64,000 nucleotides of DNA from an uncultured Verrucomicrobiota bacterium. GTDB taxonomy: Bacteria; Verrucomicrobiota; Kiritimatiellia; PWTM01. This document shows positions 4,184 through 15,309 of this stretch, piece after piece (the first letter of the stretch is position 1; every line of letters begins with the position of its first letter). Both the position numbers and the translations under genes were made by a program. The DNA lies in the NCBI GenBank assembly GCA_964402695.1, contig CAYODK010000001.1:12702-76701 (forward strand), given 5' to 3'. Below the pieces are notes generated by a model. It searched no databases. It was not told where the DNA came from and worked only from the letters and a program-made list of their open reading frames with translations.

Positions 4184-6100
4184 TCATCCCCGGGGAGGGG
4201 TCGCACGGGTGGACTGCCACATCTCCTGCGTTGCCGCCGCGAAGGCGGAGGGGTCGGCGTTGGGGAGGAGCATCGAGTCGATGTAGGCGGACTCGAACTC
4301 CGGGCGGAGGTTGAGTTCGACCGGTTCGGCGGCGCGGATAATGCGCTCGAACTCCGCGGCGGCGCCGGGGCCGCCGAGCGCGAGGACCGCGCCGGCGAGC
4401 GAGCCGTTGCCGATCACCTCGATCTTCCCGGCGGGCAGGTCGGGCAGCAGCCCCATCCACGCGGCGTGGCGCAGGTGAATGTAGCGTGCGAAGCCTCCGG
4501 CGAGGATCAGCGTGTCGAGATCCGCGACGGTGCGCCCGGCGGCGGCGAGCAGGGTCACGATGCCCGCGTGGATCGCGGCCTTGGCCTTCAGGATTTCGGC
4601 GACGTCCGCCTCGGAGACCGTCAGCGGGTGCCCGGCGGCGGTCGCCTCGGCGGGCACGACGCGGCAGGCGTGGATGTGCCGGCCTCGGTGGTCGACCCGC
4701 GCGTCGAGGCCGGCGGCGCGGAGCCGGTCCATGTCGAAGCGGCCGAGCGCGTCGAGGAGGCCGGACCGGAACGACTGGGCGACGAAGTCGACGATCGCCG
4801 ACCCGCAGAATCCGGCCGCCGGAGCGCCGCCGATCGTCGTCCATTCGGCCTCCGGCCCGTCCGTCCAGCGCACGTGGTCCACCGCGCCGTCGGCCGCGCG
4901 CATGCCGTGGCGCAGCCCCGCGCCCTCGAATGCCGGTCCCGCCGCAGTCGCCGCGCACAGGAGCCGGGCGCCGTCCCAGAGCAGGATTTCGCCGTTGGTG
5001 CCGATGTCGACCAGGGCCACGAGACCCTTGCGGTCGAGAAGCCGCGCCGCGCAGGCGTCCGCGACCAGGTCCCCGCCGACGTGCCCCGTCATCGAGGGCA
5101 GCACGTCGACGATCGCGTTCGGGTTCGCCGCGAGGCCCAGGTCGCGCGCGCGGCACTCCGGGTGGCGGCGGCGCACCGGCTGGAACGGCATCGCGCCGAT
5201 ACCCGCCGGGGTGAGCCCGAGAAACAGGTGCGCCATCACCGTGTTTCCGGCGGCGGTCACGCGAACGATCGCCTCCGGCGCGCAGCCGGCCTTCTCGCAC
5301 AGTTCGGCGGCCAGCCGGTTGATCGTGTCGCGCACGACGAGCGACTGCAGCTGGGCCAGCCCCCCGGGCGCCATGGAGACCGTGATCCGGGCGGCCACGT
5401 CGTCGCCCTTCCGCATCTGCGCGTTGTAGGCGGACGCGCGGCCGATCGCGGCGCCGGTGTCGAGATCGGCCAGCAGCGCGACGACGGTTGTGGTTCCGAT
5501 GTCGACGGCGAGCCCCAGGTGGCGGGTTGTCCCGGCCGGCGCGACCGCCGTAACGTCCACGCCCCCCCGGAACGGCCCCCATGAAACGTCCAGGCGGGGG
5601 GCTGCGGCCAGATGTCCCGGGAGTTCCCGCGCAACGTGGAGATCCGGAACCGCCCCCTCGGGACCCCCGGCCCCGGTGAGCGCGAGCGCGAGTCGTTCCA
5701 CGTCGGAGGAGGCGGTCTCCCAGGTGCCGCCGGAGACGGCGACCGTCGCGCGCCGCTGCACCGGTGTCCAGGCGAAGGCCGGAATCACGAAGTCGTCGGC
5801 GATGCTGGCCCGCTGCTCGACCAGCGACCGGTCCGGGATCTCCACCACGGCATCCGCGGAAGCGGGCCGCGTGCCGCAGGCCTGCGCCCGGCGCGGCGCG
5901 CCCGGCTCCACGCGCACCTCGGAGCCGCGGATGACAAACGCGCCCTCGTGGAGGATGACGGCGCAGCGGCCGCAGGCGCCGCGCGCGCCGCAGGCCGTGT
6001 TGAGCGGGATGCCGGCGGCGAACGCGAGATCCGCCAGCGTGGAACCGGGGGGGCCGTCCTGGATCCGGGTCTCGCCGCGGATCCGGAAGCGCACGCTCAT
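4184..6100 (-). CDS. corrinoid reductive activase (RACo-type: 2Fe-2S ferredoxin plus ASKHA ATPase domain)
   Basis: The N-terminus LNTACGARGACGRCAV is a plant-type ferredoxin Cys cluster. It is followed by a long ASKHA/DUF4445-like region (DIGTTTVV...VDIGTNGEI). It lies 22 nt downstream of a B12-binding protein gene on the same strand. Confidence 0.75.
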   Translation of the reverse strand: MSVRFRIRGETRIQDGPPGSTLADLAFAAGIPLNTACGARGACGRCAVILHEGAFVIRGSEVRVEPGAPRRAQACGTRPASADAVVEIPDRSLVEQRASIADDFVIPAFAWTPVQRRATVAVSGGTWETASSDVERLALALTGAGGPEGAVPDLHVARELPGHLAAAPRLDVSWGPFRGGVDVTAVAPAGTTRHLGLAVDIGTTTVVALLADLDTGAAIGRASAYNAQMRKGDDVAARITVSMAPGGLAQLQSLVVRDTINRLAAELCEKAGCAPEAIVRVTAAGNTVMAHLFLGLTPAGIGAMPFQPVRRRHPECRARDLGLAANPNAIVDVLPSMTGHVGGDLVADACAARLLDRKGLVALVDIGTNGEILLWDGARLLCAATAAGPAFEGAGLRHGMRAADGAVDHVRWTDGPEAEWTTIGGAPAAGFCGSAIVDFVAQSFRSGLLDALGRFDMDRLRAAGLDARVDHRGRHIHACRVVPAEATAAGHPLTVSEADVAEILKAKAAIHAGIVTLLAAAGRTVADLDTLILAGGFARYIHLRHAAWMGLLPDLPAGKIEVIGNGSLAGAVLALGGPGAAAEFERIIRAAEPVELNLRPEFESAYIDSMLLPNADPSAFAAATQEMWQSTRATPPRG

Positions 6101-6122
6101 GCGGGAATGACGGACGGCGCCG

Positions 6123-6752
6123 TCAGCCGGCGACGCCGAGGCACTTCTCGACGATGCCGACGGACGCGCCGGCGTCCTCGGCGTACCCGTGCGCGCCGAT
6201 CTCGTCGGCGTAGCCCTGCGTCACCGGCGCGCCGCCGATGATCACCTTCACGCCCGGCCGGGCCTTGAAGTGGTCGGCCACGGTCTTCATGTAGGGCATC
6301 GTCGTTGTCAGGAGCGCGCTCAGGAGCACCGCCTGGGCGCCGTCGTTGACGGCCTTCTCGAACTTCGCGACGTCGACGTTGACGCCCAGGTCGATGACCT
6401 TGAAGCCGGCGCCCTTGAGCATCATCGCGACGAGGTTCTTGCCGATGTCGTGCAGGTCGCCCTTCACCGTGCCGATGCAGATCGTGCCGAGGGGCTTGTG
6501 GCCGGCCTTGGCGACGAGCGGCTCCAGGATGTTCAGCCCCGCCTGCATCGCGCGCGCCCCGATCAGCATCTGCGGCACGTAGACCTCGTTGCGCGAGAAC
6601 CGCTCGCCGAGATCCCGCATGGCCGGGATCATCGACTCCATCAGGAGCTCGACGGGGTTGGCCCCCTTGGCGAGTTCCGACTGAACGATGTCCTCGACGT
6701 CCTTGCGCTGACCCGTGCTGACCGCCTTGAAGAGCGCCTCGTTCTTAGCCAT
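6123..6752 (-). CDS. B12-binding corrinoid protein (MtbC/MttC-like)
   Basis: DxHxxG motif in GDLHDIGKNLV; GFKVIDLG and SALLTTTMPYM form the B12-binding Rossmann fold; an N-terminal helical cap domain is also present. Confidence 0.8.
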   Translation of the reverse strand: MAKNEALFKAVSTGQRKDVEDIVQSELAKGANPVELLMESMIPAMRDLGERFSRNEVYVPQMLIGARAMQAGLNILEPLVAKAGHKPLGTICIGTVKGDLHDIGKNLVAMMLKGAGFKVIDLGVNVDVAKFEKAVNDGAQAVLLSALLTTTMPYMKTVADHFKARPGVKVIIGGAPVTQGYADEIGAHGYAEDAGASVGIVEKCLGVAG

Positions 6753-6777: not shown

Positions 6778-7215
6778 CTACACCATGTCCCCGGGCTTCT
6801 CCACCGTGGTATCCTGCAGAATGTCGGTCATCCGGTCGAGGGCGGCCTGGATGGTGGCCATCTCCTCGCGGATCCGTTCGAAGCGGAGCGCATGGTCGAT
6901 CCGGAGCTTCTCGAGGTAGCGCTTCCGATCCAGCACCTCCTCCATGGTGACCTGGAGGCGCTCGACCTTCTCCTTGAGAATCTCCTCGGCGGAGGCATCG
7001 AGGCCGCCGGGGCCGACGAGCTCCGTGTCGGAGCCCGGCGGGCCGGACATGGTCTGCTCCTCCCGGGTGGGAACCTGCATGCGCTGGCCGCACTCGGTGC
7101 ATGTGACCACCAGCCCTGCGCCGCGTTCGTCGATGCAGAGGCTCTTCCCGCACTGCGGGCAGTCAAACAGGATGTCGCGTTCCGACACGTCGGTGGACGA
7201 GGCGTCATCGTTCAT
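6778..7215 (-). CDS. zinc-ribbon (CPxCG ... CxxCG) protein with coiled-coil C-terminus, hypothetical
   Basis: Real start MNDDASST... lies inside track ORF 6778..7773 and abuts the mvaD stop (7212-7214). Motifs FDCPQCGKSL...CTECGQ. Confidence 0.5.
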   Translation of the reverse strand: MNDDASSTDVSERDILFDCPQCGKSLCIDERGAGLVVTCTECGQRMQVPTREEQTMSGPPGSDTELVGPGGLDASAEEILKEKVERLQVTMEEVLDRKRYLEKLRIDHALRFERIREEMATIQAALDRMTDILQDTTVEKPGDMV

Positions 7216-8288
7216 GGTCCAGCCCTCTGATTCCGTGGCAAGGGTATCGCCGAACCTCCTGTCCCACAAGTCAAACCCGCCGGGTTCCGAAACGGATGCA
7301 GCACGCGGAGGCCGGGCACGGCCGCGCGGAGGGCCGCCTCCGAGCCGGACTCGAAGATCAGCTTGAGGTTGGGTCCGGCGTCCATGGTGAACCACACCGG
7401 GATGCCGTCCTCGCGCCATCGGGCCGCCTGGCGCATCGCGCGGACCGACTCCGGAAGCCAGTAGAGAACCGGCGGCCGCGCTGCAAGGGCGGTCGCGTGC
7501 ATCGCCATCGCGTTGCCTTCCGCCGCCGCCCCGAGGCGGGGCAGGTCGCGCGCGGCGATCGCGGACCGGACGTCCGCCAGATCCTGCTCCACGACGGCGG
7601 GCCACCCCGCGTACAGCGGCGACGACTCCACCGTGCGCCGCATGCCCTCGCGGGAGCCGGTCGCCTTCGGGGCGTCGCTCAGGACCCACAGGCCGATGCG
7701 CAGTTCCGGCCAGAGCGGGTCGAGCGGTACGCCGTGCGAATCGGAACCGTCGGGCGACGCCCCGGCGCGCCACTCGACGAAGCCGTCCCAGAGGGACCTG
7801 CAGGCGCTGCCGCTGCCCAGCCGGGCAAGAACCGACAGCCCCCTCGCGTCGAGGCTCCAGCCCAGCAGGCCGTCGAGGGCCCGCACGAGCGCGGCGAATC
7901 CCGAGGCGGACGAGGCCACGCCGGCCGCCGTGGGCACCGTGTTGGTGGATTCGACGGAGAAGCCCGGGCAGGCCGGGGTGCGGAAGAGGTCCAGAAACTG
8001 CGAGAGACGCACCGCGGCCGGGGCCGTCGGATCGACCGTCGCGCCGTTGAGGCGGAACGAGTCGCGGTCCGAGGCGCCCGCCGTGGTGCGGGTTCCGGCG
8101 TCGCCCAGCGACACCGAGAGGCTGCCTGTGACCGGCAGGTTCAGCTCCCCGTCGCGCTTGCCCCAGTACTTCACGAGCGCGATGTTGGCGGGCGCGAACG
8201 CGGTCGCCGGGGCGCCGGGGCGCGCGATGCGGCCCTGGAGGACGTCCCCGACGGCGGCGCGGCGGCGATCGGCACCGGAGGAACTCAT
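7212..8288 (-). CDS. mvaD: diphosphomevalonate decarboxylase
   Basis: C-terminal 358 aa of track ORF 7212..9131, starting MSSSGADRR...; signatures APANIALVKYWGKRD, GSLSVSL, ESTNTVPTAAGVASSASGFAALV and ARLGSGSACRS. Confidence 0.8.
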   Translation of the reverse strand: MSSSGADRRRAAVGDVLQGRIARPGAPATAFAPANIALVKYWGKRDGELNLPVTGSLSVSLGDAGTRTTAGASDRDSFRLNGATVDPTAPAAVRLSQFLDLFRTPACPGFSVESTNTVPTAAGVASSASGFAALVRALDGLLGWSLDARGLSVLARLGSGSACRSLWDGFVEWRAGASPDGSDSHGVPLDPLWPELRIGLWVLSDAPKATGSREGMRRTVESSPLYAGWPAVVEQDLADVRSAIAARDLPRLGAAAEGNAMAMHATALAARPPVLYWLPESVRAMRQAARWREDGIPVWFTMDAGPNLKLIFESGSEAALRAAVPGLRVLHPFRNPAGLTCGTGGSAIPLPRNQRAGP

Positions 8289-9208
8289 GCGCCGGTCTCC
8301 ACCACGAGGCCCTCGGCCCCGACCGCGACGCCGATCTCCCTCATCGCGGGATCGAGCCGCGCCGGCCGGCCGAGCGCGACGACACAGTCGCCCAGACCCG
8401 AGCCGGAGATCTTCGCGCCGAGCACCGCCGGATCCGCCCGCAGGGCGTGGACGAGGCCCGCGAGCGTCGCGTCGCTCACGCCGATCGCATCCATCAACCC
8501 CTGCGCGACGTTCATCAACGCGCCCACGCGCGTCCAGTTGGCCTGCTCGACCGCCGCCGTCGCCTCCTCCGCGACGCGGTTCATCGCCTCGTAGACGGCG
8601 TTGAAGACGGCCGGCATGGCGGCCCGCGAGGTCTCGACGCGGCGGATGACCTCGGGCGTCGGCGTCTTGTACCCCGCGTAGACCAGCGTCACCGGCGGCG
8701 CCTGCGCGATGCGGCGGATCGCGAGCGGGTCGGCGCGGTAGGCGACGACGCCTCCGAACGCGCTCGCCGCGGCGTCGGCGCCCGAACCCGCGCCCTGCAC
8801 ACCGCGGATCACGTCGCGCGCGATCCGCACGAGCGCCTCGCGGGACGGAGTCCGCCCGGCGTATGCCGCGAACGCCGCGAGGGAGGCGACCGTCACGGCG
8901 GCCGACGAGCCAAGGCCGACGGTCGGCGGGAACTCGGACTCGATCCGCAGGTCGAACCCGCCCGGGAGCGCCGCCGCCTCGCGCGCCAGCGAGGCCAGGA
9001 CGAAGCGGAAGGGCTCGGACGGTGCGGGCGCGTCCAGCGTCGTCTCGTGCCGTCCGAGCGCCGATTCGATCGTGACGATCCGGTCCGTCCGCGGCGCGAG
9101 CGTCGCCGTCAGCCGCGCCGACGCGGCGCACACCAGCGCCCGCTTGCCGTGCAGCACCGCGTGCTCGCCGAACAGCATGAACGACCCCGGAGCCGATGCG
9201 CGTATCAT
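8285..9208 (-). CDS. mvk: mevalonate kinase (GHMP kinase)
   Basis: Internal start MIRASAPGSFMLFGEHAVLHGKRAL (MVK N-terminal motif); GHMP motif PPTVGLGSSAAVTVA; its stop abuts the mvaD ATG. Confidence 0.75.
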   Translation of the reverse strand: MIRASAPGSFMLFGEHAVLHGKRALVCAASARLTATLAPRTDRIVTIESALGRHETTLDAPAPSEPFRFVLASLAREAAALPGGFDLRIESEFPPTVGLGSSAAVTVASLAAFAAYAGRTPSREALVRIARDVIRGVQGAGSGADAAASAFGGVVAYRADPLAIRRIAQAPPVTLVYAGYKTPTPEVIRRVETSRAAMPAVFNAVYEAMNRVAEEATAAVEQANWTRVGALMNVAQGLMDAIGVSDATLAGLVHALRADPAVLGAKISGSGLGDCVVALGRPARLDPAMREIGVAVGAEGLVVETGA

Positions 9209-9551
9209 GCGGGTCTTATACCACGCACGCCCTTCCTCCGCATCTTCCCTCGCCCCGCCCAGATCCTCGCCAAGCCGGATGTGCGCGGAAGGAATAGGCA
9301 TGAAGTACGCATGGTTACGGCCGCGACGGAGCGCGGCCCTCCAGTGCTCATCCAATCAACATGCGAGAGGACGGCTTTGGAGGGCGCCGCGGTGCCTGCC
9401 CTGCATAGCGTCTTCGCGAAGCAGGGTCGGCGCCGTGCAACAGACCCGCGGAGCAACGTTCGCCACCAATCACCGGGGCTTCGCCGAGGATTTGAGGCCC
9501 GGCTTCCGGGTTGCGCGCGCGATGCGGGGAGTGCATCGTCCCTTCCAGCGG

Positions 9552-10427
9552 ATGAACTCAGACCCGATGAACCGACGAGCGACCGTTCTTGCGGCGATCG
9601 CCATCGCGATGGGGCTGATCTGGGCGGGTTACCGGATCGGACGCGAGTCGCGCCCCGAGCCAGCCCCGCCTGCGTCGCGCGCACCGCACGCAACGGCGGG
9701 CACGCCGGTCCGCCCGCGGCCGGCAGCGCGGCGGGCGTCGCCCCCTCCGGCGCCTTCCCTGCAGCGCGGCAGTCTGCCGGCGGACGAGACGGCCCGGTCG
9801 ACCAACGCGACGGCATCCGATGAACGAAGCGTCGATGGTCTCGACTTCGACTGGTTCAACCTATTCCCCAAACCCATGTACGAGGGCGCCCCCGCATGGC
9901 TCCGCGAGTGGCCGGAGGGGACCGACCCCCGGGCGTGGAGGACCTTCGAGTTCTCCTTCGCCTTCAACCCCCGCAACCTCTCGCGCAACAAGCCGGTGAC
10001 CGCGAGCGATCCGATGCCGGTGATCGGTGAGTTGGAGATGCTGACCGACGGCGACAAACTCGCCGCGGACGGCAGTTGGGTGGAACTGGCGGAAGGCGCC
10101 CAGTACGTTCAAGTCGACCTGGAACGCGAGTGCGAGATCGTCGGGGTCGCGCTCTGGCATCTCTACGCTTCACCGCGGATCTACCACGACGTCCAGGTCT
10201 GGATCTCCGCCGACGAGACGTTCACGAACGCGGCCGCGGTCTTCAACAATGACAGCGACAACTCCCTGGGCAACGGCGTCGGAGACAACGCGCCGTACCT
10301 CGAGACCCATCGCGGCCTGTTCCGCTCATTCGAGCCGGTCACGGGCCGGTACGTGCGCGCGTACAGCCGCGGCAGCACGGCGAACGCGAAGAACCAATAC
10401 GTCGAGCTGGAGGTCTTCGGCCGATGA
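9552..10427 (+). CDS. membrane-anchored protein with Pro-rich linker and C-terminal discoidin (F5/8 type C)-like domain
   Basis: Start MNSDPMNRRATVLAAIAIAMGLIWAGY (single TM helix), then a PAPPASRAP... linker, then GSWVELAEGAQYVQVDLERECEIVGVALWH...YVRAY...QYVELEVFG, a jelly-roll discoidin pattern. Confidence 0.55.
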   Translation: MNSDPMNRRATVLAAIAIAMGLIWAGYRIGRESRPEPAPPASRAPHATAGTPVRPRPAARRASPPPAPSLQRGSLPADETARSTNATASDERSVDGLDFDWFNLFPKPMYEGAPAWLREWPEGTDPRAWRTFEFSFAFNPRNLSRNKPVTASDPMPVIGELEMLTDGDKLAADGSWVELAEGAQYVQVDLERECEIVGVALWHLYASPRIYHDVQVWISADETFTNAAAVFNNDSDNSLGNGVGDNAPYLETHRGLFRSFEPVTGRYVRAYSRGSTANAKNQYVELEVFGR

Positions 10428-12130
10428 GCGGGACGGACGATGCAACGGCCTTCCCGCTGCCCCCCGGCTCGACGGCGCTGAACCTGCTGGGGGTCGACTA
10501 CGCGCACGTAAAGACGGGCGACGGGGGCGATCTCTACCTGACCCGGTTCGGCGCGCCGTTCGCGGAGCACCTCAAGCCCGAGTCGTGGTTCGAGCCCGCC
10601 TGGTTCCGGCACAACCGCGAGAAGCTGGCGGGGACGAGCACGGTGTACCGCGTCCACACGCGGCCCCTCGACGGGCGCGGCAAGGACATCGTCGTGAAGT
10701 GGTGCCGCGTGGGCACCGAGATCCCCGTGGACACCTTCACGCTGACCAAGTTCGTCGAGGCCGAGTTCAACAGCCCCTACGAGGAGTTCGCCCTGGTCAT
10801 GGAACTTCGGGCCGAGCGGACCCGGCCGCGCCTGCGGACGCACAGGCCGCTCGCCATCTACGTTCCGGCGAAGCGGTTCAAGCCCTGGCAGATGCAGCGC
10901 ATCGAGTCGAAGATGGAGCGCAAGAAGGCCAAGTTCCGCGACATCGAACTCGACATCTTCCGCCAGTACATCCTGATCTACGAATGGGTCAAGGGGGTGT
11001 CGCTCCCCGAGGCGTTCCTGTCCGTGCAGGGCAGCGTTGAGGAGCGCCGCGCGGAGCTGCGGCGGCTCACGGACAAAGGGGTGCGCGACCTGGCGGAGAA
11101 GGGCTTCCGCGTGTTGGACATGAAGCCCGAGCACATGATCGTGCGCCCGGGGCCGGCCGGCCGGCTTCCGCGGCGCGACGGGAGGCTTGTCTACGCCCTG
11201 GTCGATTTCGAGCTGCTGCAGCGGACGCCGGAGCACGAGAGCGCCGTCGCGTCGCTGCGTCGCGCGGCCTACCTCAGGCACCAGAAGGACCGTTTTGCCG
11301 TGCCGGTGCACGCCCCCCTGCCGCCGCACCTGAAGGCCGCCAACGTGTTCGGCATCGACTATGTCTGCGGCCACTCCGAGAGCACCGGCGGTGAGCTGTG
11401 GGTGGTCGGCCGGGATCCCCAGCTGTTCGACTACTTCCTGCCCGAGCGCTGGCGGCGCACGCCGCGGACGAGGCTGTCGGAGGCCAACGAGGTCTGGCAG
11501 ACGCGCACGAAGGACCAGATCAACCTCGTCTGGAAGGTCTCGCGCGTCGGCGAGATCCCGGACCCGGATCCCGCGGACCCGCGCTCGGCGCGCATCCGCG
11601 AGCACGGGTTCAACAGCCCGTTCGAGGAGTTCGAGATCGCCATCCGCCTCGCGCGCGACGGCGTGCCGGTCGTCTATCCGCGCGCGGTCTACATGACGGG
11701 CCAGCCCGCCGCCGGCGCCGCGGCCTATGCCGCCGACACGCGCCGCTACGAGCGCGACGAGGGGATCCGGGGGCCGGACGGGCGGCCCGCCTTGCGCCGC
11801 GACCACAACTACATCACGGTGTGGGGCTATTGGAACGGGTCCGACGAGACCCTGGCGACGCGCGACGTCGCGGTTTGCTCGCCGCTCAGCCTGGCCAGGG
11901 CCCTGGAGGAGCACCGTCTGACCGGGCCCGAGCACGACGCCCTGCTGGCCGACGCCGCGGCTGCGCTGGCCCGGGCGGGCTACGAGGATCTCAACCTCCA
12001 GGGAGGCCACCTGCTGCTGTCGGTGCCGCCGCAGGGAGGCTTCCTGCGGGGCGATGACGGCCGCCCGCTCGTCCGCTGGTGCAACTTCAGCCTGATGCGG
12101 CCGGTGGCCGCGGCGTCACCGCCCGAGTGA
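10424..12130 (+). CDS. tandem protein-kinase-like fold protein (kinase-like N-terminal half plus degenerate C-terminal repeat)
   Basis: ATGA start/stop overlap with the upstream gene. Two homologous halves: GVDYAHV.../GIDYVCG..., FNSPYEEFALVMELRAE/FNSPFEEFEIAIRLARDG, and GRGKDIVVKW (G-loop plus Lys) in half 1. Half 1 also carries VLDMKPEHMIV (HRDLKPEN-like catalytic loop) and LVDFEL (DFG-like); half 2 has these degenerated (DLNLQGGH, NFS). Confidence 0.6.
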   Translation: MSGTDDATAFPLPPGSTALNLLGVDYAHVKTGDGGDLYLTRFGAPFAEHLKPESWFEPAWFRHNREKLAGTSTVYRVHTRPLDGRGKDIVVKWCRVGTEIPVDTFTLTKFVEAEFNSPYEEFALVMELRAERTRPRLRTHRPLAIYVPAKRFKPWQMQRIESKMERKKAKFRDIELDIFRQYILIYEWVKGVSLPEAFLSVQGSVEERRAELRRLTDKGVRDLAEKGFRVLDMKPEHMIVRPGPAGRLPRRDGRLVYALVDFELLQRTPEHESAVASLRRAAYLRHQKDRFAVPVHAPLPPHLKAANVFGIDYVCGHSESTGGELWVVGRDPQLFDYFLPERWRRTPRTRLSEANEVWQTRTKDQINLVWKVSRVGEIPDPDPADPRSARIREHGFNSPFEEFEIAIRLARDGVPVVYPRAVYMTGQPAAGAAAYAADTRRYERDEGIRGPDGRPALRRDHNYITVWGYWNGSDETLATRDVAVCSPLSLARALEEHRLTGPEHDALLADAAAALARAGYEDLNLQGGHLLLSVPPQGGFLRGDDGRPLVRWCNFSLMRPVAAASPPE

Positions 12131-12367
12131 CGCGACAACGGGCGGGGTTCTCCCGTCGGCGATGGACTCCGGACGCCTTCGGATCGCCAGGGCGGCGTCA
12201 CGAAGCCGGGCAGCCATGCGGATCTTCTCCGCCCATGGCAGCCCCGCCCGGGTTCTCTGCCACTCCGCCTGGCGACGGGCGATGTCGTCAACTCCCGGCA
12301 TGGAGAAACGCACGCGCGATCAGCGCCGAACCGGTCGCGGCGGCCAGCGGGGCCATTCCCACCGGCT

Positions 12368-13960
12368 TCAGGGCGTCTTTTTCTTCCCCTTGCCCTTCTT
12401 CTTCCCGCCGCCCGGGCCGGGCGCGGGCTTGACCTGGGCGCGCTCGGCCCAGGCCTCCCACGCGGCGGCCATCTCGCGGGCCTTCTCCGGCATCGCGGCG
12501 GCCAGGTCGTTGAGCTCGGTGCGGTCCTTTTTCAGATCGTAGAGCTCCCACGGACCGTTCGCGCCCTTGCGGACCAGCTTCCAGTCGCCGACGCGGATGG
12601 CGGCATTGCCCTCGTGCTCCCAGTAGAGCGCCTCGCGCGCGACCGGCTTGTCCGTGAACGCGGGCACCAGGCTGCGGCCCTCCATCGGCTGGATCGTGCG
12701 GTCGCCGATCTTCGCCGGGTAGGCGGCGCGGCCGACGTCGGCCACCGTCGCCATGATATCGACGAGGTGGCCCGGCTGGGCGCGCAACTCTCCCTTCGCG
12801 GCGATGCCGGCCGGCCAGTGCGCGATCAGGGGCGTCGCGATGCCGCCCTCGTGGTTGAAGTGCTTGTAGCGTCGGAACGGTGTGTTCTCGAGCACCGCCC
12901 AGGACTCGCCGCAGAACCAGTCGGAGTCCGCCTTCGTGGGGTCGCCGTTCGTCCTGCCGCCCGGCCCCGCCTCGGCGTTGCCGCCGTTGTCGCTCATAAA
13001 GAGGATCAGGGTGTTGTCGAGCAGGCCGCGCGCCTTCAGACCGTCGACGAACGTGCCCATCGCGCGGTCCATGCGCCAGACGACCGCCGCGTACACGGCC
13101 ATGATGTGGTCGAAACGGTCCTTCTCCTCCGCGGTGAGGCTGTCCCACGCCTTCACCGCGTCCGGCCGCGGCGACAGCGGCCAGGCCTTGTCGACGAGGC
13201 CCATCGCGATCTGGCGCCGGTGGCGCTCCTCGCGCAACCGGTCCCACCCGGCCTTGTACCTGCCGCGGAACCGGGCGATGTCGGCCTCGTCGGCCTGGAG
13301 CGGGAAGTGCGGCGCGTTGTGGGCGAGGTAGAGGAAGAACGGCTTCTTCGCGGCGACGGCCTCGTCGACGAACCGCAGCCCGAACCCGGCCCAGAGGTCG
13401 CTCGAGTACCAGTTCTTCGGCAGTTCGGGCGCCCCGCGGGGAAGCTCCCTGCCGTTCAGGAAGAGTGTCGCGCGCGGCGCGTCGGGCCGGTAGAAGCCGC
13501 CGGCCGCGGCGTTGAGGCTGCGGTCGAATCCGCGCTCCCACGGCACGACGCCGAGGTTCTGGCCGACATGCCACTTGCCGACCATCGCCGTGAAGTAGCC
13601 GGCCGGTCGCAGCACCTCGGCCATCGTTGCGCACCGGTCGTTGAGCCGGCCCTGGTAGCCCGGCTGGCCGCGGTCGTCGGTCATGTGGCCGACCCCCGCC
13701 TGGTGGGGATAGAGCCCGGTCAGCAGCGAGGCGCGTGTCGGGCAGCAGCGGCCCGTGTTGTAGAACTGCGTGAACCGGAGGCCGTTCGCGGCGAGCGCAT
13801 CGAGGGCGGGCGTCTCGATCTCGCCGCCGTAGCAGCCGAGGTCGGAGAAGCCCATGTCGTCGACGAGCACCACGGCGATGTTCGGCCGTGCCGGTTCCGC
13901 CGCGCACGCGGCGCCCGCGCCAAGCCCGATCGCCGCCATGAAACCCAGAAGCTTCTTCAT
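12368..13960 (-). CDS. arylsulfatase (formylglycine-dependent sulfatase)
   Basis: Start MKKLLGFMAAIGLGAGAACAA (signal peptide) after a GGAGGTG RBS; CCPTRASLLTG (C-x-P-x-R FGly motif); MVGKWH and SDNG sulfatase boxes; Lys-rich tail GGGKKKGKGKKKTP. Confidence 0.85.
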   Translation of the reverse strand: MKKLLGFMAAIGLGAGAACAAEPARPNIAVVLVDDMGFSDLGCYGGEIETPALDALAANGLRFTQFYNTGRCCPTRASLLTGLYPHQAGVGHMTDDRGQPGYQGRLNDRCATMAEVLRPAGYFTAMVGKWHVGQNLGVVPWERGFDRSLNAAAGGFYRPDAPRATLFLNGRELPRGAPELPKNWYSSDLWAGFGLRFVDEAVAAKKPFFLYLAHNAPHFPLQADEADIARFRGRYKAGWDRLREERHRRQIAMGLVDKAWPLSPRPDAVKAWDSLTAEEKDRFDHIMAVYAAVVWRMDRAMGTFVDGLKARGLLDNTLILFMSDNGGNAEAGPGGRTNGDPTKADSDWFCGESWAVLENTPFRRYKHFNHEGGIATPLIAHWPAGIAAKGELRAQPGHLVDIMATVADVGRAAYPAKIGDRTIQPMEGRSLVPAFTDKPVAREALYWEHEGNAAIRVGDWKLVRKGANGPWELYDLKKDRTELNDLAAAMPEKAREMAAAWEAWAERAQVKPAPGPGGGKKKGKGKKKTP

Positions 13961-14833: not shown

Positions 14834-14910
14834 GGGCCCGTAGCTCAGTTGGTCAGAGCTGGAGACTCATAATCTCTAGGTCGCAGGTTCGAGCCCTGCC
14901 GGGCCCACCA
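14834..14910 (+). tRNA. tRNA-Met (anticodon CAT; elongator-type, could also be tRNA-Ile2/lysidine)
   Basis: GGGCCCGTAGCTCAGTTGGTCAGAGCTGGAGACTCATAATCTCTAGGTCGCAGGTTCGAGCCCTGCCGGGCCCACCA: 7-bp acceptor stem GGGCCCG/CGGGCCC, anticodon loop CTCATAA, T-loop GTTCGAGCC, encoded CCA. Confidence 0.9.
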
Positions 14911-15309
14911 TCCTTCGCTCGGCGCGGGGCGGCGAGCGAAGGATGGTGCCCTCCATAGCGCCGCTCCGCGGCGCGACGGAGGGCCCGTGGTCCGCTCCGC
15001 GCCGAGCTACGGATGGCAGGCCATGTTCTATACGTATGTCTTGGAAAGCGAGATCGAACCGTCCCGCCATTACATCGGCCATACTGCGGACCTGGCCCAG
15101 CGGCTGTTGGATCACAACGCCGGGACCTCGCCGCACACGACCAAGTACCGGCCCTGGCGCGTGAAGTTCCATGCGGCCTTTGAAACGATCGAACGGGCCC
15201 GGACCTTTGAGCGCTATCTGAAATCCGGATCCGGTCACGCCTTCGCTCACAAGCATCTCGGTTTCTGAAGCGCTCGGCGCGGAGCGGCGAGCGAAGGATG
15301 GTGCCCTCC
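14911..15309 (+). mobile_element. tRNA-adjacent GIY-YIG nuclease cassette bounded by ~38-bp direct repeats
   Basis: Direct repeats GCTCGGCGCGG(G/A)GCGGCGAGCGAAGGATGGTGCCCTCC at ~14917-14954 and ~15271-15309 flank one GIY-YIG gene; the left copy starts right after the tRNA 3' CCA. Confidence 0.6.
15023..15268 (+). CDS. GIY-YIG nuclease family protein (UPF0213-like)
   Basis: MFYTYVLESEIEPSRHYIGHTADLAQRLLDHN: GIY-YIG-type motifs (YVLES...YIGHT...R...HN). Confidence 0.75.
   Translation: MFYTYVLESEIEPSRHYIGHTADLAQRLLDHNAGTSPHTTKYRPWRVKFHAAFETIERARTFERYLKSGSGHAFAHKHLGF

Follow-up and report, generated by a model that had tools for sequence, protein, structure and literature searches.

The window analysed in this study is a stretch of 64,000 nucleotides from an uncultured Verrucomicrobiota bacterium, and its G+C content is about 70%. 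Two overlapping genes on its + strand were followed up, gene A for a discoidin-domain protein and gene B for a 568-aa protein. The evidence supports gene B as encoding a kinase-pseudokinase tandem, in which a predicted intact protein-kinase-like (PKL) domain is followed by a degenerate copy of the same domain. To judge from their sequences, its homologues form a widespread and undescribed bacterial family with this composition. The product is probably an intramolecular kinase-pseudokinase acting as an ATP-dependent phosphotransferase on a cytoplasmic target, and gene A would be an accidental neighbour. Gene B and its two halves are located as follows.

10424-12130, + strand: gene B, 568-aa tandem protein-kinase-like protein, predicted to be cytoplasmic (open reading frame; no hydrophobic segment; AlphaFold2 model)
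10463-11299, + strand: half 1, minimal PKL domain, predicted to be catalytically intact and extended at its N-terminus by about 50 aa of beta/alpha structure (AlphaFold2, Foldseek, ABC1 and Kdo matches)
11321-12109, + strand: half 2, degenerate (pseudokinase-like) copy (hhalign alignment with half 1; matching secondary structure)

An earlier sequence-only reading of the same DNA had described the 568-aa protein as an internal duplication, and this was confirmed in two ways. A BLASTP comparison of residues 1-300 with residues 301-568 gave an E value of 7e-8 with 24% identity. Profiles of the two halves were also built from 35 homologues, and hhalign aligned them over 235 columns with a probability of 99.8% and an E value of 1e-27. 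The full-length AlphaFold2 model had a predicted local distance difference test (pLDDT) value of 82 and a predicted template modelling (pTM) score of 0.83, and the order of its secondary-structure elements repeats in both halves. Half 1 was modelled with an alignment that included single-domain relatives, and its pLDDT and pTM values were 91.8 and 0.89. A Foldseek search against the PDB, a check proposed in the sequence-only reading, was carried out with the full-length and half-1 models. The top 50 matches were protein kinases only (E about 2e-4 to 1e-3, probability about 1.0), among them IRE1, CDK9/12, DCLK1, DAPK, ULK, and PknB. At the sequence level, weak matches to ABC1 (UbiB) were found in 22 of the 35 homologues, of which P0039 alone exceeded the gathering cutoff (23.4 against 22.9 bits). 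One homologue, P0063, matched Kdo (PF06293) above the cutoff (24.6 against 21.3 bits). All of these matches fall on residues 172-282 or so of half 1, covering beta5, the hinge, alphaE, the catalytic loop, and the DFE motif. Because the Foldseek result, the AlphaFold2 models, and the weak ABC1 and Kdo matches agree, the domain is placed in the PKL superfamily, where it lies outside any described family.

Several results weigh against this interpretation of gene B as a protein kinase tandem. The Foldseek template modelling (TM) scores are low (0.27-0.38) with root-mean-square deviations of 7-10 Å. Therefore, the fold call depends on the consistency of the matches and on the motifs, as no structure matches closely. 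The window protein had no match in Pfam or NCBIfam, and neither the single protein nor the family profile found a match in a PDB sequence search. In addition, half 1 ends about 30 residues past the DFE motif with one long helix and is without an activation segment and alphaF-alphaI, so the usual platform for a protein substrate is missing. Finally, the minimal PKL proteins RIO, Bud32, and UbiB/COQ8 are mainly ATPases, and WaaP/KdkA are sugar kinases.

The catalytic residues of both halves were then counted in 270 full-length homologues aligned to the family profile, and the numbers below refer to this set.

10628-10648, + strand: glycine loop AGTSTVY with G70, between predicted beta1 and beta2 (G70 in 267 of 270)
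10697-10699, + strand: K92, the beta3 lysine of VVKW, in predicted strand 88-93 (K in 268 of 270)
10781-10789, + strand: E120-E121-F of NSPYEEF at the start of alphaC (helix 118-130), the Glu partner of K92 (E121 in 270 of 270)
11117-11134, + strand: catalytic loop D232-M-K234-P-E-H237 (D in 269, K in 270, H in 269 of 270)
11204-11212, + strand: D261-F-E263, the DFG-equivalent metal-binding motif (D and E each in 270 of 270)
11993-12010, + strand: region of half 2 aligned with the catalytic loop, N524-L-Q-G-G-H529 (position 524: N in 131, D in 16, variable in the rest; H529 in 239 of 270)
12083-12088, + strand: half-2 counterpart of DFE, N554-F555 (N in 238 and D in 2 of 246 aligned)

The catalytic set of half 1 (G70, K92, E121, D232-x-K-P-x-H237, D261-F-E) is kept in at least 267 of the 270 homologues. 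The beta3 Lys, the DMKPEH loop, and the DFE motif had already been recognised in the sequence-only reading, and their conservation across the homologues bears this out. Its glycine loop was misplaced, since the proposed GRGKD is a non-conserved turn between beta2 and beta3 and the real glycine loop is AGTSTVY. One canonical residue is replaced in half 1. The metal-binding Asn five residues past the catalytic Asp is His in 269 homologues. The same D-x4-H spacing is present in E. coli WaaP (HRDCYICH), which is active as a heptose kinase, and the replacement of Asn by His need not be disqualifying.

The catalytic residues of half 2 had been described as lost, and indeed NLQGGH and NF stand at the aligned positions. 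Other positions are better preserved. The position of the beta3 Lys (K371) is K in 211 homologues and R in 47, and the Glu of alphaC (E401) is kept in 264 of 270. The position of the loop Lys (526) is K in 159 of 270 and Q in the window, and position 556, equivalent to the Glu of DFE, is E in 150 of 270 and S in the window. Sequences of half 1 share 60% identity on average in pairwise comparison and those of half 2 share 55%, and these close values indicate that half 2 is maintained rather than decaying, apparently under purifying selection nearly equal to that on half 1. Half 2 has the attributes of a pseudokinase, as it is conserved, is homologous to half 1, and has lost both catalytic Asp residues. 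The overall description as a kinase-pseudokinase tandem is thus supported by the kinases that fill the top 50 of Foldseek, by the ABC1 and Kdo matches on the core of half 1, and by the conservation in 270 homologues.

The family was large and without annotation. The search returned 2313 matches among 90%-identity clusters, all named 'hypothetical', and 636 representatives of 50%-identity clusters. Relatives occur in 441 species-representative genomes, all of them metagenome-assembled genomes (MAGs) or single-cell assemblies. The hosts belong to Verrucomicrobiota/Kiritimatiellia/Lentisphaerota, Nitrospirota, Thermodesulfobacteriota, Sumerlaeia, Planctomycetota, Elusimicrobiota, Fibrobacterota, and Raymondbacteria. 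The full tandem is retained down to 45% identity across the 441 genomes. Single-domain relatives of about 300 aa carry the motifs of half 1, and a separate 'half-2' gene was looked for after them and none was found. No Pfam or NCBIfam model covers the window protein, and a literature search for tandem bacterial atypical kinase/pseudokinase families found no paper on this family. The family is therefore uncharacterised, as had been supposed from the sequence.

Some side observations concern its members. Rare fusions of the tandem protein carry an N-terminal GNAT acetyltransferase (P0246) or an N-terminal O-methyltransferase fragment (P0278), and in P0288 a helix-hairpin-helix region precedes a partial copy of the tandem. 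Single-domain half-1 relatives lie beside DUF4914 (PF16260) or within 1.3 kb of it in four loci (L094:1-579, L096:6901-8712, L101:2150-4009, and L116:4023-5939). For DUF4914, no PDB relative was found by sequence and no relevant paper was found. ArgJ adjoins the single-domain relatives in L104 and L110 and is within about 2 kb in L096. An anti-phage defence role or a phage-borne kinase was also considered and rejected, because the PADLOC defence models gave no match and IMG/VR held no relative.

On the basis of the conserved residues, a mechanism can be proposed. Half 1 would bind ATP-Mg via G70, the K92-E121 pair, H237, and D261, and would move the gamma-phosphate using D232 as the catalytic base together with K234. 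Half 2 may bind nucleotide or another ligand, or it may supply the substrate platform that is missing from the truncated C-lobe. Either way, it would regulate half 1. Its most likely role is that of a regulatory or scaffolding partner packed against half 1, because both catalytic Asp residues are lost, the Lys/Glu pair is kept, and purifying selection is near-equal. The packing between the domains is confident in the full-length AlphaFold2 model, as its pTM value indicates. The protein is without a transmembrane segment, signal peptide, or other hydrophobic segment and is predicted to be cytoplasmic. A protein substrate or autophosphorylation is slightly favoured over a small molecule, because the Lys-Pro of the loop (D-x-K-P-x-H) matches the pattern of Ser/Thr protein kinases, whereas WaaP lacks it.

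A similar arrangement is found in eukaryotic tandems such as JAK JH2-JH1, GCN2, and the plant tandem kinase proteins, where an active domain and a conserved, catalytically lost paralogous domain likewise share one polypeptide. This combination implies intramolecular regulation. In contrast to the eukaryotic tandems, the duplication in gene B appears to be an independent one in another PKL branch, its active domain comes first, and both domains are minimal. It is also bacterial and cytoplasmic, with no receptor or nucleotide-binding leucine-rich repeat (NLR) partner. If half 1 is active, the family would be an undescribed PKL branch in hundreds of uncultured bacterial species of several phyla, with a fixed and strongly conserved active-plus-degenerate tandem, an arrangement for which eukaryotic JAKs, GCN2, and plant tandem kinases are the best-known examples. 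It would then offer a simple bacterial system in which to study the control of a catalytic domain by its pseudokinase twin. It would also be a conserved cytoplasmic enzyme in poorly understood anaerobes.

The two alternatives to a protein kinase start from known relatives of the PKL superfamily. Gene B shares a minimal PKL domain and an insert between beta3 and alphaC with the Kdo/WaaP lipopolysaccharide (LPS) kinases (PF06293; E. coli WaaP, WaaY, and KdkA). In gene B, the insert covers residues 96-117 and has low pLDDT in the full-length model. Such an insert has been described for the KdoK/Rio cluster (PMC1821047). In both groups, His takes the place of Asn five residues past the catalytic Asp (HRDCYICH in WaaP, LDMKPEH in the gene B family), and the beta3 motif LKWH of WaaP resembles VKWC of gene B. 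Thus, half 1 could be a small-molecule or glycolipid kinase, functionally near WaaP/KdkA with their LPS core sugars or of the APH type, and not a protein kinase. The shared D-x4-H and (V/L)KW(C/H) motifs and the P0063 match to Kdo agree with this, and so does the fact that all hosts are diderm bacteria. The GNAT and O-methyltransferase-fragment fusions recall bifunctional small-molecule-modifying enzymes, and GalE is a neighbour in 4-5 loci. However, the alignment of the family profile by hhalign with the single sequences of E. coli WaaP and WaaY was not significant. The register with WaaY was sensible, at an E value of 0.04 and a probability of 1%. The context of the genes is not a recurrent operon for LPS or glycan synthesis, and the Lys two residues past the catalytic Asp, typical of Ser/Thr protein kinases, is absent from WaaP. 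The gene B family also differs from Kdo/WaaP in the loop Lys-Pro, the DFE motif, the conserved N-terminal extension of about 50 aa, the tandem, and the lack of an LPS-core gene context. A small-molecule or glycolipid kinase is rather unlikely, although it is a serious rival reading. As to membership of the Kdo/WaaP family itself, it was rejected, as the window protein gave no PF06293 match and the WaaP and WaaY alignments were not significant.

In the other alternative, half 1 resembles UbiB/COQ8, RIO, or Bud32 in its mode of action, as an ATPase or a conformational switch in which the hydrolysis of ATP would power chaperone-like or assembly work, and half 2 is its structural partner. ABC1/UbiB/COQ8 (PF03109) is the commonest sub-threshold Pfam match, and together with Kdo it provides the nearest Pfam signals of the family. 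The minimal domain without an activation segment or a substrate-binding C-lobe would suit such a role, and COQ8 is reported to act as an ATPase (PMC13418538). On the other hand, the catalytic-base Asp and the Lys of the Ser/Thr kinase type (D-x-K-P-x-H) are essentially invariant, which goes beyond the usual needs of ATP hydrolysis. The canonical protein kinases rank first in Foldseek, and KxGQ, the N-terminal hallmark motif of UbiB, is not visible in the family consensus. UbiB is a single-domain protein with the loop HADPHPGN, whereas the gene B family is without KxGQ and without a membrane or quinone context. Membership of ABC1/UbiB was rejected, given that the window protein had no PF03109 match and the consensus no KxGQ. 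The RIO and Bud32 minimal kinases are archaeal and eukaryotic, have the canonical loop Asn, and are not tandem, whereas the gene B family is found in bacterial MAGs and gave no sequence matches with them. An ATPase or switch is considered unlikely, although it too is a serious rival. The phosphotransferase reading is preferred, and here the Hanks-type Ser/Thr kinases (PknB, DAPK, CDK) give the best Foldseek matches. Their D-L-K-P-E-N agrees with D-M-K-P-E-H in four of six positions, and both groups have the Lys/Glu pair and a DF(G/E) motif. However, gene B differs from them in lacking the His-Arg of HRD, the activation loop, APE, and alphaF-alphaI, the TM-score is about 0.3, and PF00069 had no match in the window protein or the 35 homologues. 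Gene B was consequently not assigned to the Hanks-type eukaryotic-like kinases.

The gene neighbourhoods were searched for a possible target by clustering all flanking ORFs (open reading frames) in two sets of about 80 loci. No universal operon partner was found, and the commonest neighbour families occurred in at most 9 of about 83 loci. One of these was GTP-dependent phosphoenolpyruvate carboxykinase (GTP-PEPCK; PEPCK_N and PEPCK_GTP, E down to 1e-168), an immediate neighbour in nine loci with four arrangements. In six Nitrospirota loci it precedes the tandem gene on the same strand, in one Raymondbacteria and one deltaproteobacterial MAG it follows the gene, and in another MAG it is upstream but on the other strand.

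L081:4184-5968, L082, L083, L087, L090, L091, L040:7692-9497, L079, and L088:3275-5161: GTP-PEPCK loci

An NAD(P)-malic enzyme lies 20-700 bp from the tandem gene in three metagenomic loci (L097:1318-3027, L102, and L149:7865-10096). In two further loci (L107:219-2693 and L108:3028-5502), an ORF of 825 codons joins phosphoenolpyruvate (PEP) carboxylase (PEPcase, 5e-155) in-frame with the kinase-like domain. The PEPcase part is without its last 170 or so profile positions, and the kinase-like domain is without its first 38 or so residues. These two loci come from two samples of one study. The ORF is probably a deletion fusion of adjacent genes, and it could be an assembly chimera. The recurrent neighbours of the PEP/oxaloacetate node may be a weak pointer to what the gene B protein regulates, a lead rather than a finding. 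It is quite improbable, at present, that the family is an ancient intramolecular kinase-pseudokinase module which phosphorylates and in this way regulates the PEP-pyruvate-oxaloacetate enzymes (GTP-PEPCK, malic enzyme, and PEP carboxylase) in anaerobic and uncultured bacteria. The PEPCK link concerns less than 10% of the loci, six of the nine are related Nitrospirota, and the 64-kb window encodes no PEPCK, malic enzyme, or PEP carboxylase. If it were true, the family would be the equivalent in bacteria of plant PEPC kinase or of metabolic control of the AceK type, with a domain logic like that of JAK.

The upstream gene A overlaps the start of gene B. Its features are listed below, where L005 and L010 are related loci and A7 is the alignment of the gene A homologues.

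9552 or 9567 to 10427, + strand: gene A, discoidin-domain protein, predicted to be exported (open reading frame; translation; 162 homologues; comparison of start codons with L005 and L010)
9579-9632, + strand: hydrophobic segment ATVLAAIAIAMGLIWAGY, after MNRR (Kyte-Doolittle peak 1.73 at residues 7-25; alignment A7)
9645-9851, + strand: low-complexity linker rich in Pro, Ala, and Arg (insert of about 70 residues in A7, in the closest relatives only; translation)
9858-10424, + strand: conserved discoidin region, F5/8 type C and NedA-like galactose-binding (Pfam matches; invariant A7 columns)
10424-10427, + strand: ATGA, overlap of the gene A stop and the gene B start (sequence; context CCG ATG AGC and CGA TGA)

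Translated from the first ATG (9552), gene A gives 291 aa, and from the second (9567) it gives 286 aa. The true start is probably the second ATG, because it is conserved in L005 and L010, where the ATG at 9552 is not, and because P0121, the nearest discoidin homologue, also has 286 aa. The Pfam match to F5_F8_type_C was sub-threshold (E 7.7e-5, 23.3 bits against a cutoff of 28.2) and covered residues 160-278 of the 291-aa form. The match to the NedA-like galactose-binding domain was sub-threshold as well, and NCBIfam added no match. Nevertheless, gene A is real, since it has 162 homologues. They are mostly of about 220 aa and come from many phyla, and most of them carry PF00754/PF22633. Among the homologues of 40-54% identity, both domains are present in most, and the source records call several of the homologues 'discoidin domain-containing protein'. 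In A7, conservation of the discoidin residues starts at about residue 98 and continues to the C-terminus.

The homologues start with signal peptides, several of them with a lipobox (..GGCS, ..NGCK, and VWAGCR). The window protein reads LIWAGY at this site, with Tyr for Cys, so that its N-terminal segment looks like a former signal or lipoprotein signal peptide. It may now serve as a signal anchor or as a signal peptide that is not cleaved. Gene A had been described as a single-pass membrane protein ending in a discoidin domain. The single N-terminal hydrophobic segment, the only hydropathy peak of the protein, and the discoidin-like C-terminus were confirmed, and the membrane anchoring is uncertain. 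Only MNRR stands ahead of this single segment and the homologues are signal-peptide proteins or lipoproteins. Therefore, the discoidin domain should be extracytoplasmic, with at most about four residues in the cytoplasm. Gene A is predicted to encode an exported discoidin-type carbohydrate-binding protein. Its family is large and consists of small discoidin modules that are secreted or are lipoproteins. The window protein resembles the small bacterial proteins of this kind in domain identity (40-54%), in conserved residues, and in its N-terminal export signal. It differs from them in the Tyr at the lipobox Cys, in the Pro/Ala/Arg-rich linker of about 70 aa, and in its Pfam score below the cutoff.

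The ATGA overlap of the two genes on the + strand had been noticed before and was confirmed. Because of the overlap and the shared strand, genes A and B are probably co-transcribed and co-expressed in the window. The sequence-only reading went further and proposed a possible glycan-sensing signalling pair. In such a dedicated two-protein system, the discoidin protein would detect a glycan outside the cell and pass the signal to the coupled kinase/pseudokinase. The pairing was examined by tblastn of the discoidin protein against 174 fetched loci of the gene B family. The discoidin gene is adjacent in L010 and L011 only, which represent one lineage. In L010, P0121 (a 73% identical discoidin protein) is followed with a 4-bp overlap by a kinase homologue of 83% identity, and the upstream context is different. 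Three other loci, of a sister lineage (L005, L006, and L012), keep an intact kinase gene of 85% identity and the synteny with the mevalonate genes seen in the window. Upstream of the kinase gene, they have an ORF of 40 codons (L005:9882-10004), MSRRPAMLAAVA...VEREVFGR, which is the discoidin N- and C-termini joined. The DNA alignment of window 9567-10427 with L005 showed a good match on either side of a single gap of about 735 bp. The remnant and the single gap indicate that the discoidin gene was already there in the ancestor of this small clade and was later lost from one branch by an in-frame deletion that left the kinase gene in place. Beside kinase homologues of 55-66% identity, the neighbour is instead a divergent FAD-linked oxidase or a pyridine-nucleotide oxidoreductase.

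The pair is thus not conserved across genomes, which the sequence-only reading itself had named as an outcome that would speak against its proposal. The two products are also placed in different compartments. The reading as a sensing pair is unsupported for these two reasons, and the genes appear to be neighbours by a lineage-specific arrangement rather than a sensor-transducer system. In favour of a link, the 4-bp overlap on a shared strand is found in the window and in L010, and the overlap is kept in the L005 remnant. Discoidin-domain ORFs also lie within about 2 kb of the kinase gene in two distant loci, 39-42% identical over the domain. One is two genes upstream and not adjacent (L133:53-1441), and the other is 1.1 kb downstream on the opposite strand (L123:8766-9248). 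This proximity is probably at about chance level for a multi-copy family. The ORFs between the two genes in L133 gave no match in a PDB annotation. A loose functional association of genes A and B may exist on these grounds. A dedicated glycan-sensing system, however, is very improbable. Only one other lineage among the 174 loci has the adjacency, and the sister lineage lost the discoidin gene in-frame with its kinase intact. Members of the discoidin family are secreted proteins or lipoproteins, the window protein would leave at most about four residues in the cytoplasm, and neither a membrane segment nor an export signal is present in the kinase-like protein. The relatives of the discoidin protein also stand in glycan-degradation contexts without a kinase. 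For example, P0124, a homologue of the same architecture, is found among glycoside-hydrolase, sialate esterase, and sugar ATP-binding cassette transporter genes with no adjoining kinase-like gene. A tempting but apparently wrong annotation is thereby removed, and the discoidin gene would be a dispensable, lineage-specific neighbour of gene B.

Genes A and B are flanked on the 5' side by genes for a GHMP mevalonate-type kinase and a diphosphomevalonate decarboxylase and on the 3' side by a sulfatase gene, all on the - strand. These opposite-strand neighbours make them an isolated two-gene unit of the + strand. GGAGG stands 10 nt 5' of the gene B ATG. A scan of 9100-12500 detected no sigma-70-like promoter and no intrinsic terminator, as is expected at 70% G+C. 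The non-coding stretch 9495-9551 (GGGTTGCGCGCGCGATGCGGGGAGTGCATCGTCCCTTCCAGCGGA), 5' of the discoidin start, is near-identical in L005 and not in L010. It may be the promoter or leader of the two-gene unit, or its likeness may reflect mere close relatedness with L005. A predicted ORF of 65 codons (12116-12313, - strand) without a Pfam match is convergent with the 3' end of gene B and overlaps it by 15 nt.

Other observations in the window concern genes farther away. A B12-binding corrinoid protein (6123-6752) adjoins a large ORF (4184-6100, - strand), whose counterpart in L005 is annotated with domains of RACo, the reductive activator of corrinoid enzymes. This region (4184-6752) lies beside the mevalonate-pathway genes at 7212-9355. 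The sole tRNA gene of the window is tRNA-Met (CAT) at 14834-14910. About 80 bp downstream of it, an ORF at 14987-15268 encodes 93 aa with a GIY-YIG domain (Pfam 1.2e-12), a layout beside a tRNA gene that is typical for a small mobile or homing-type nuclease.

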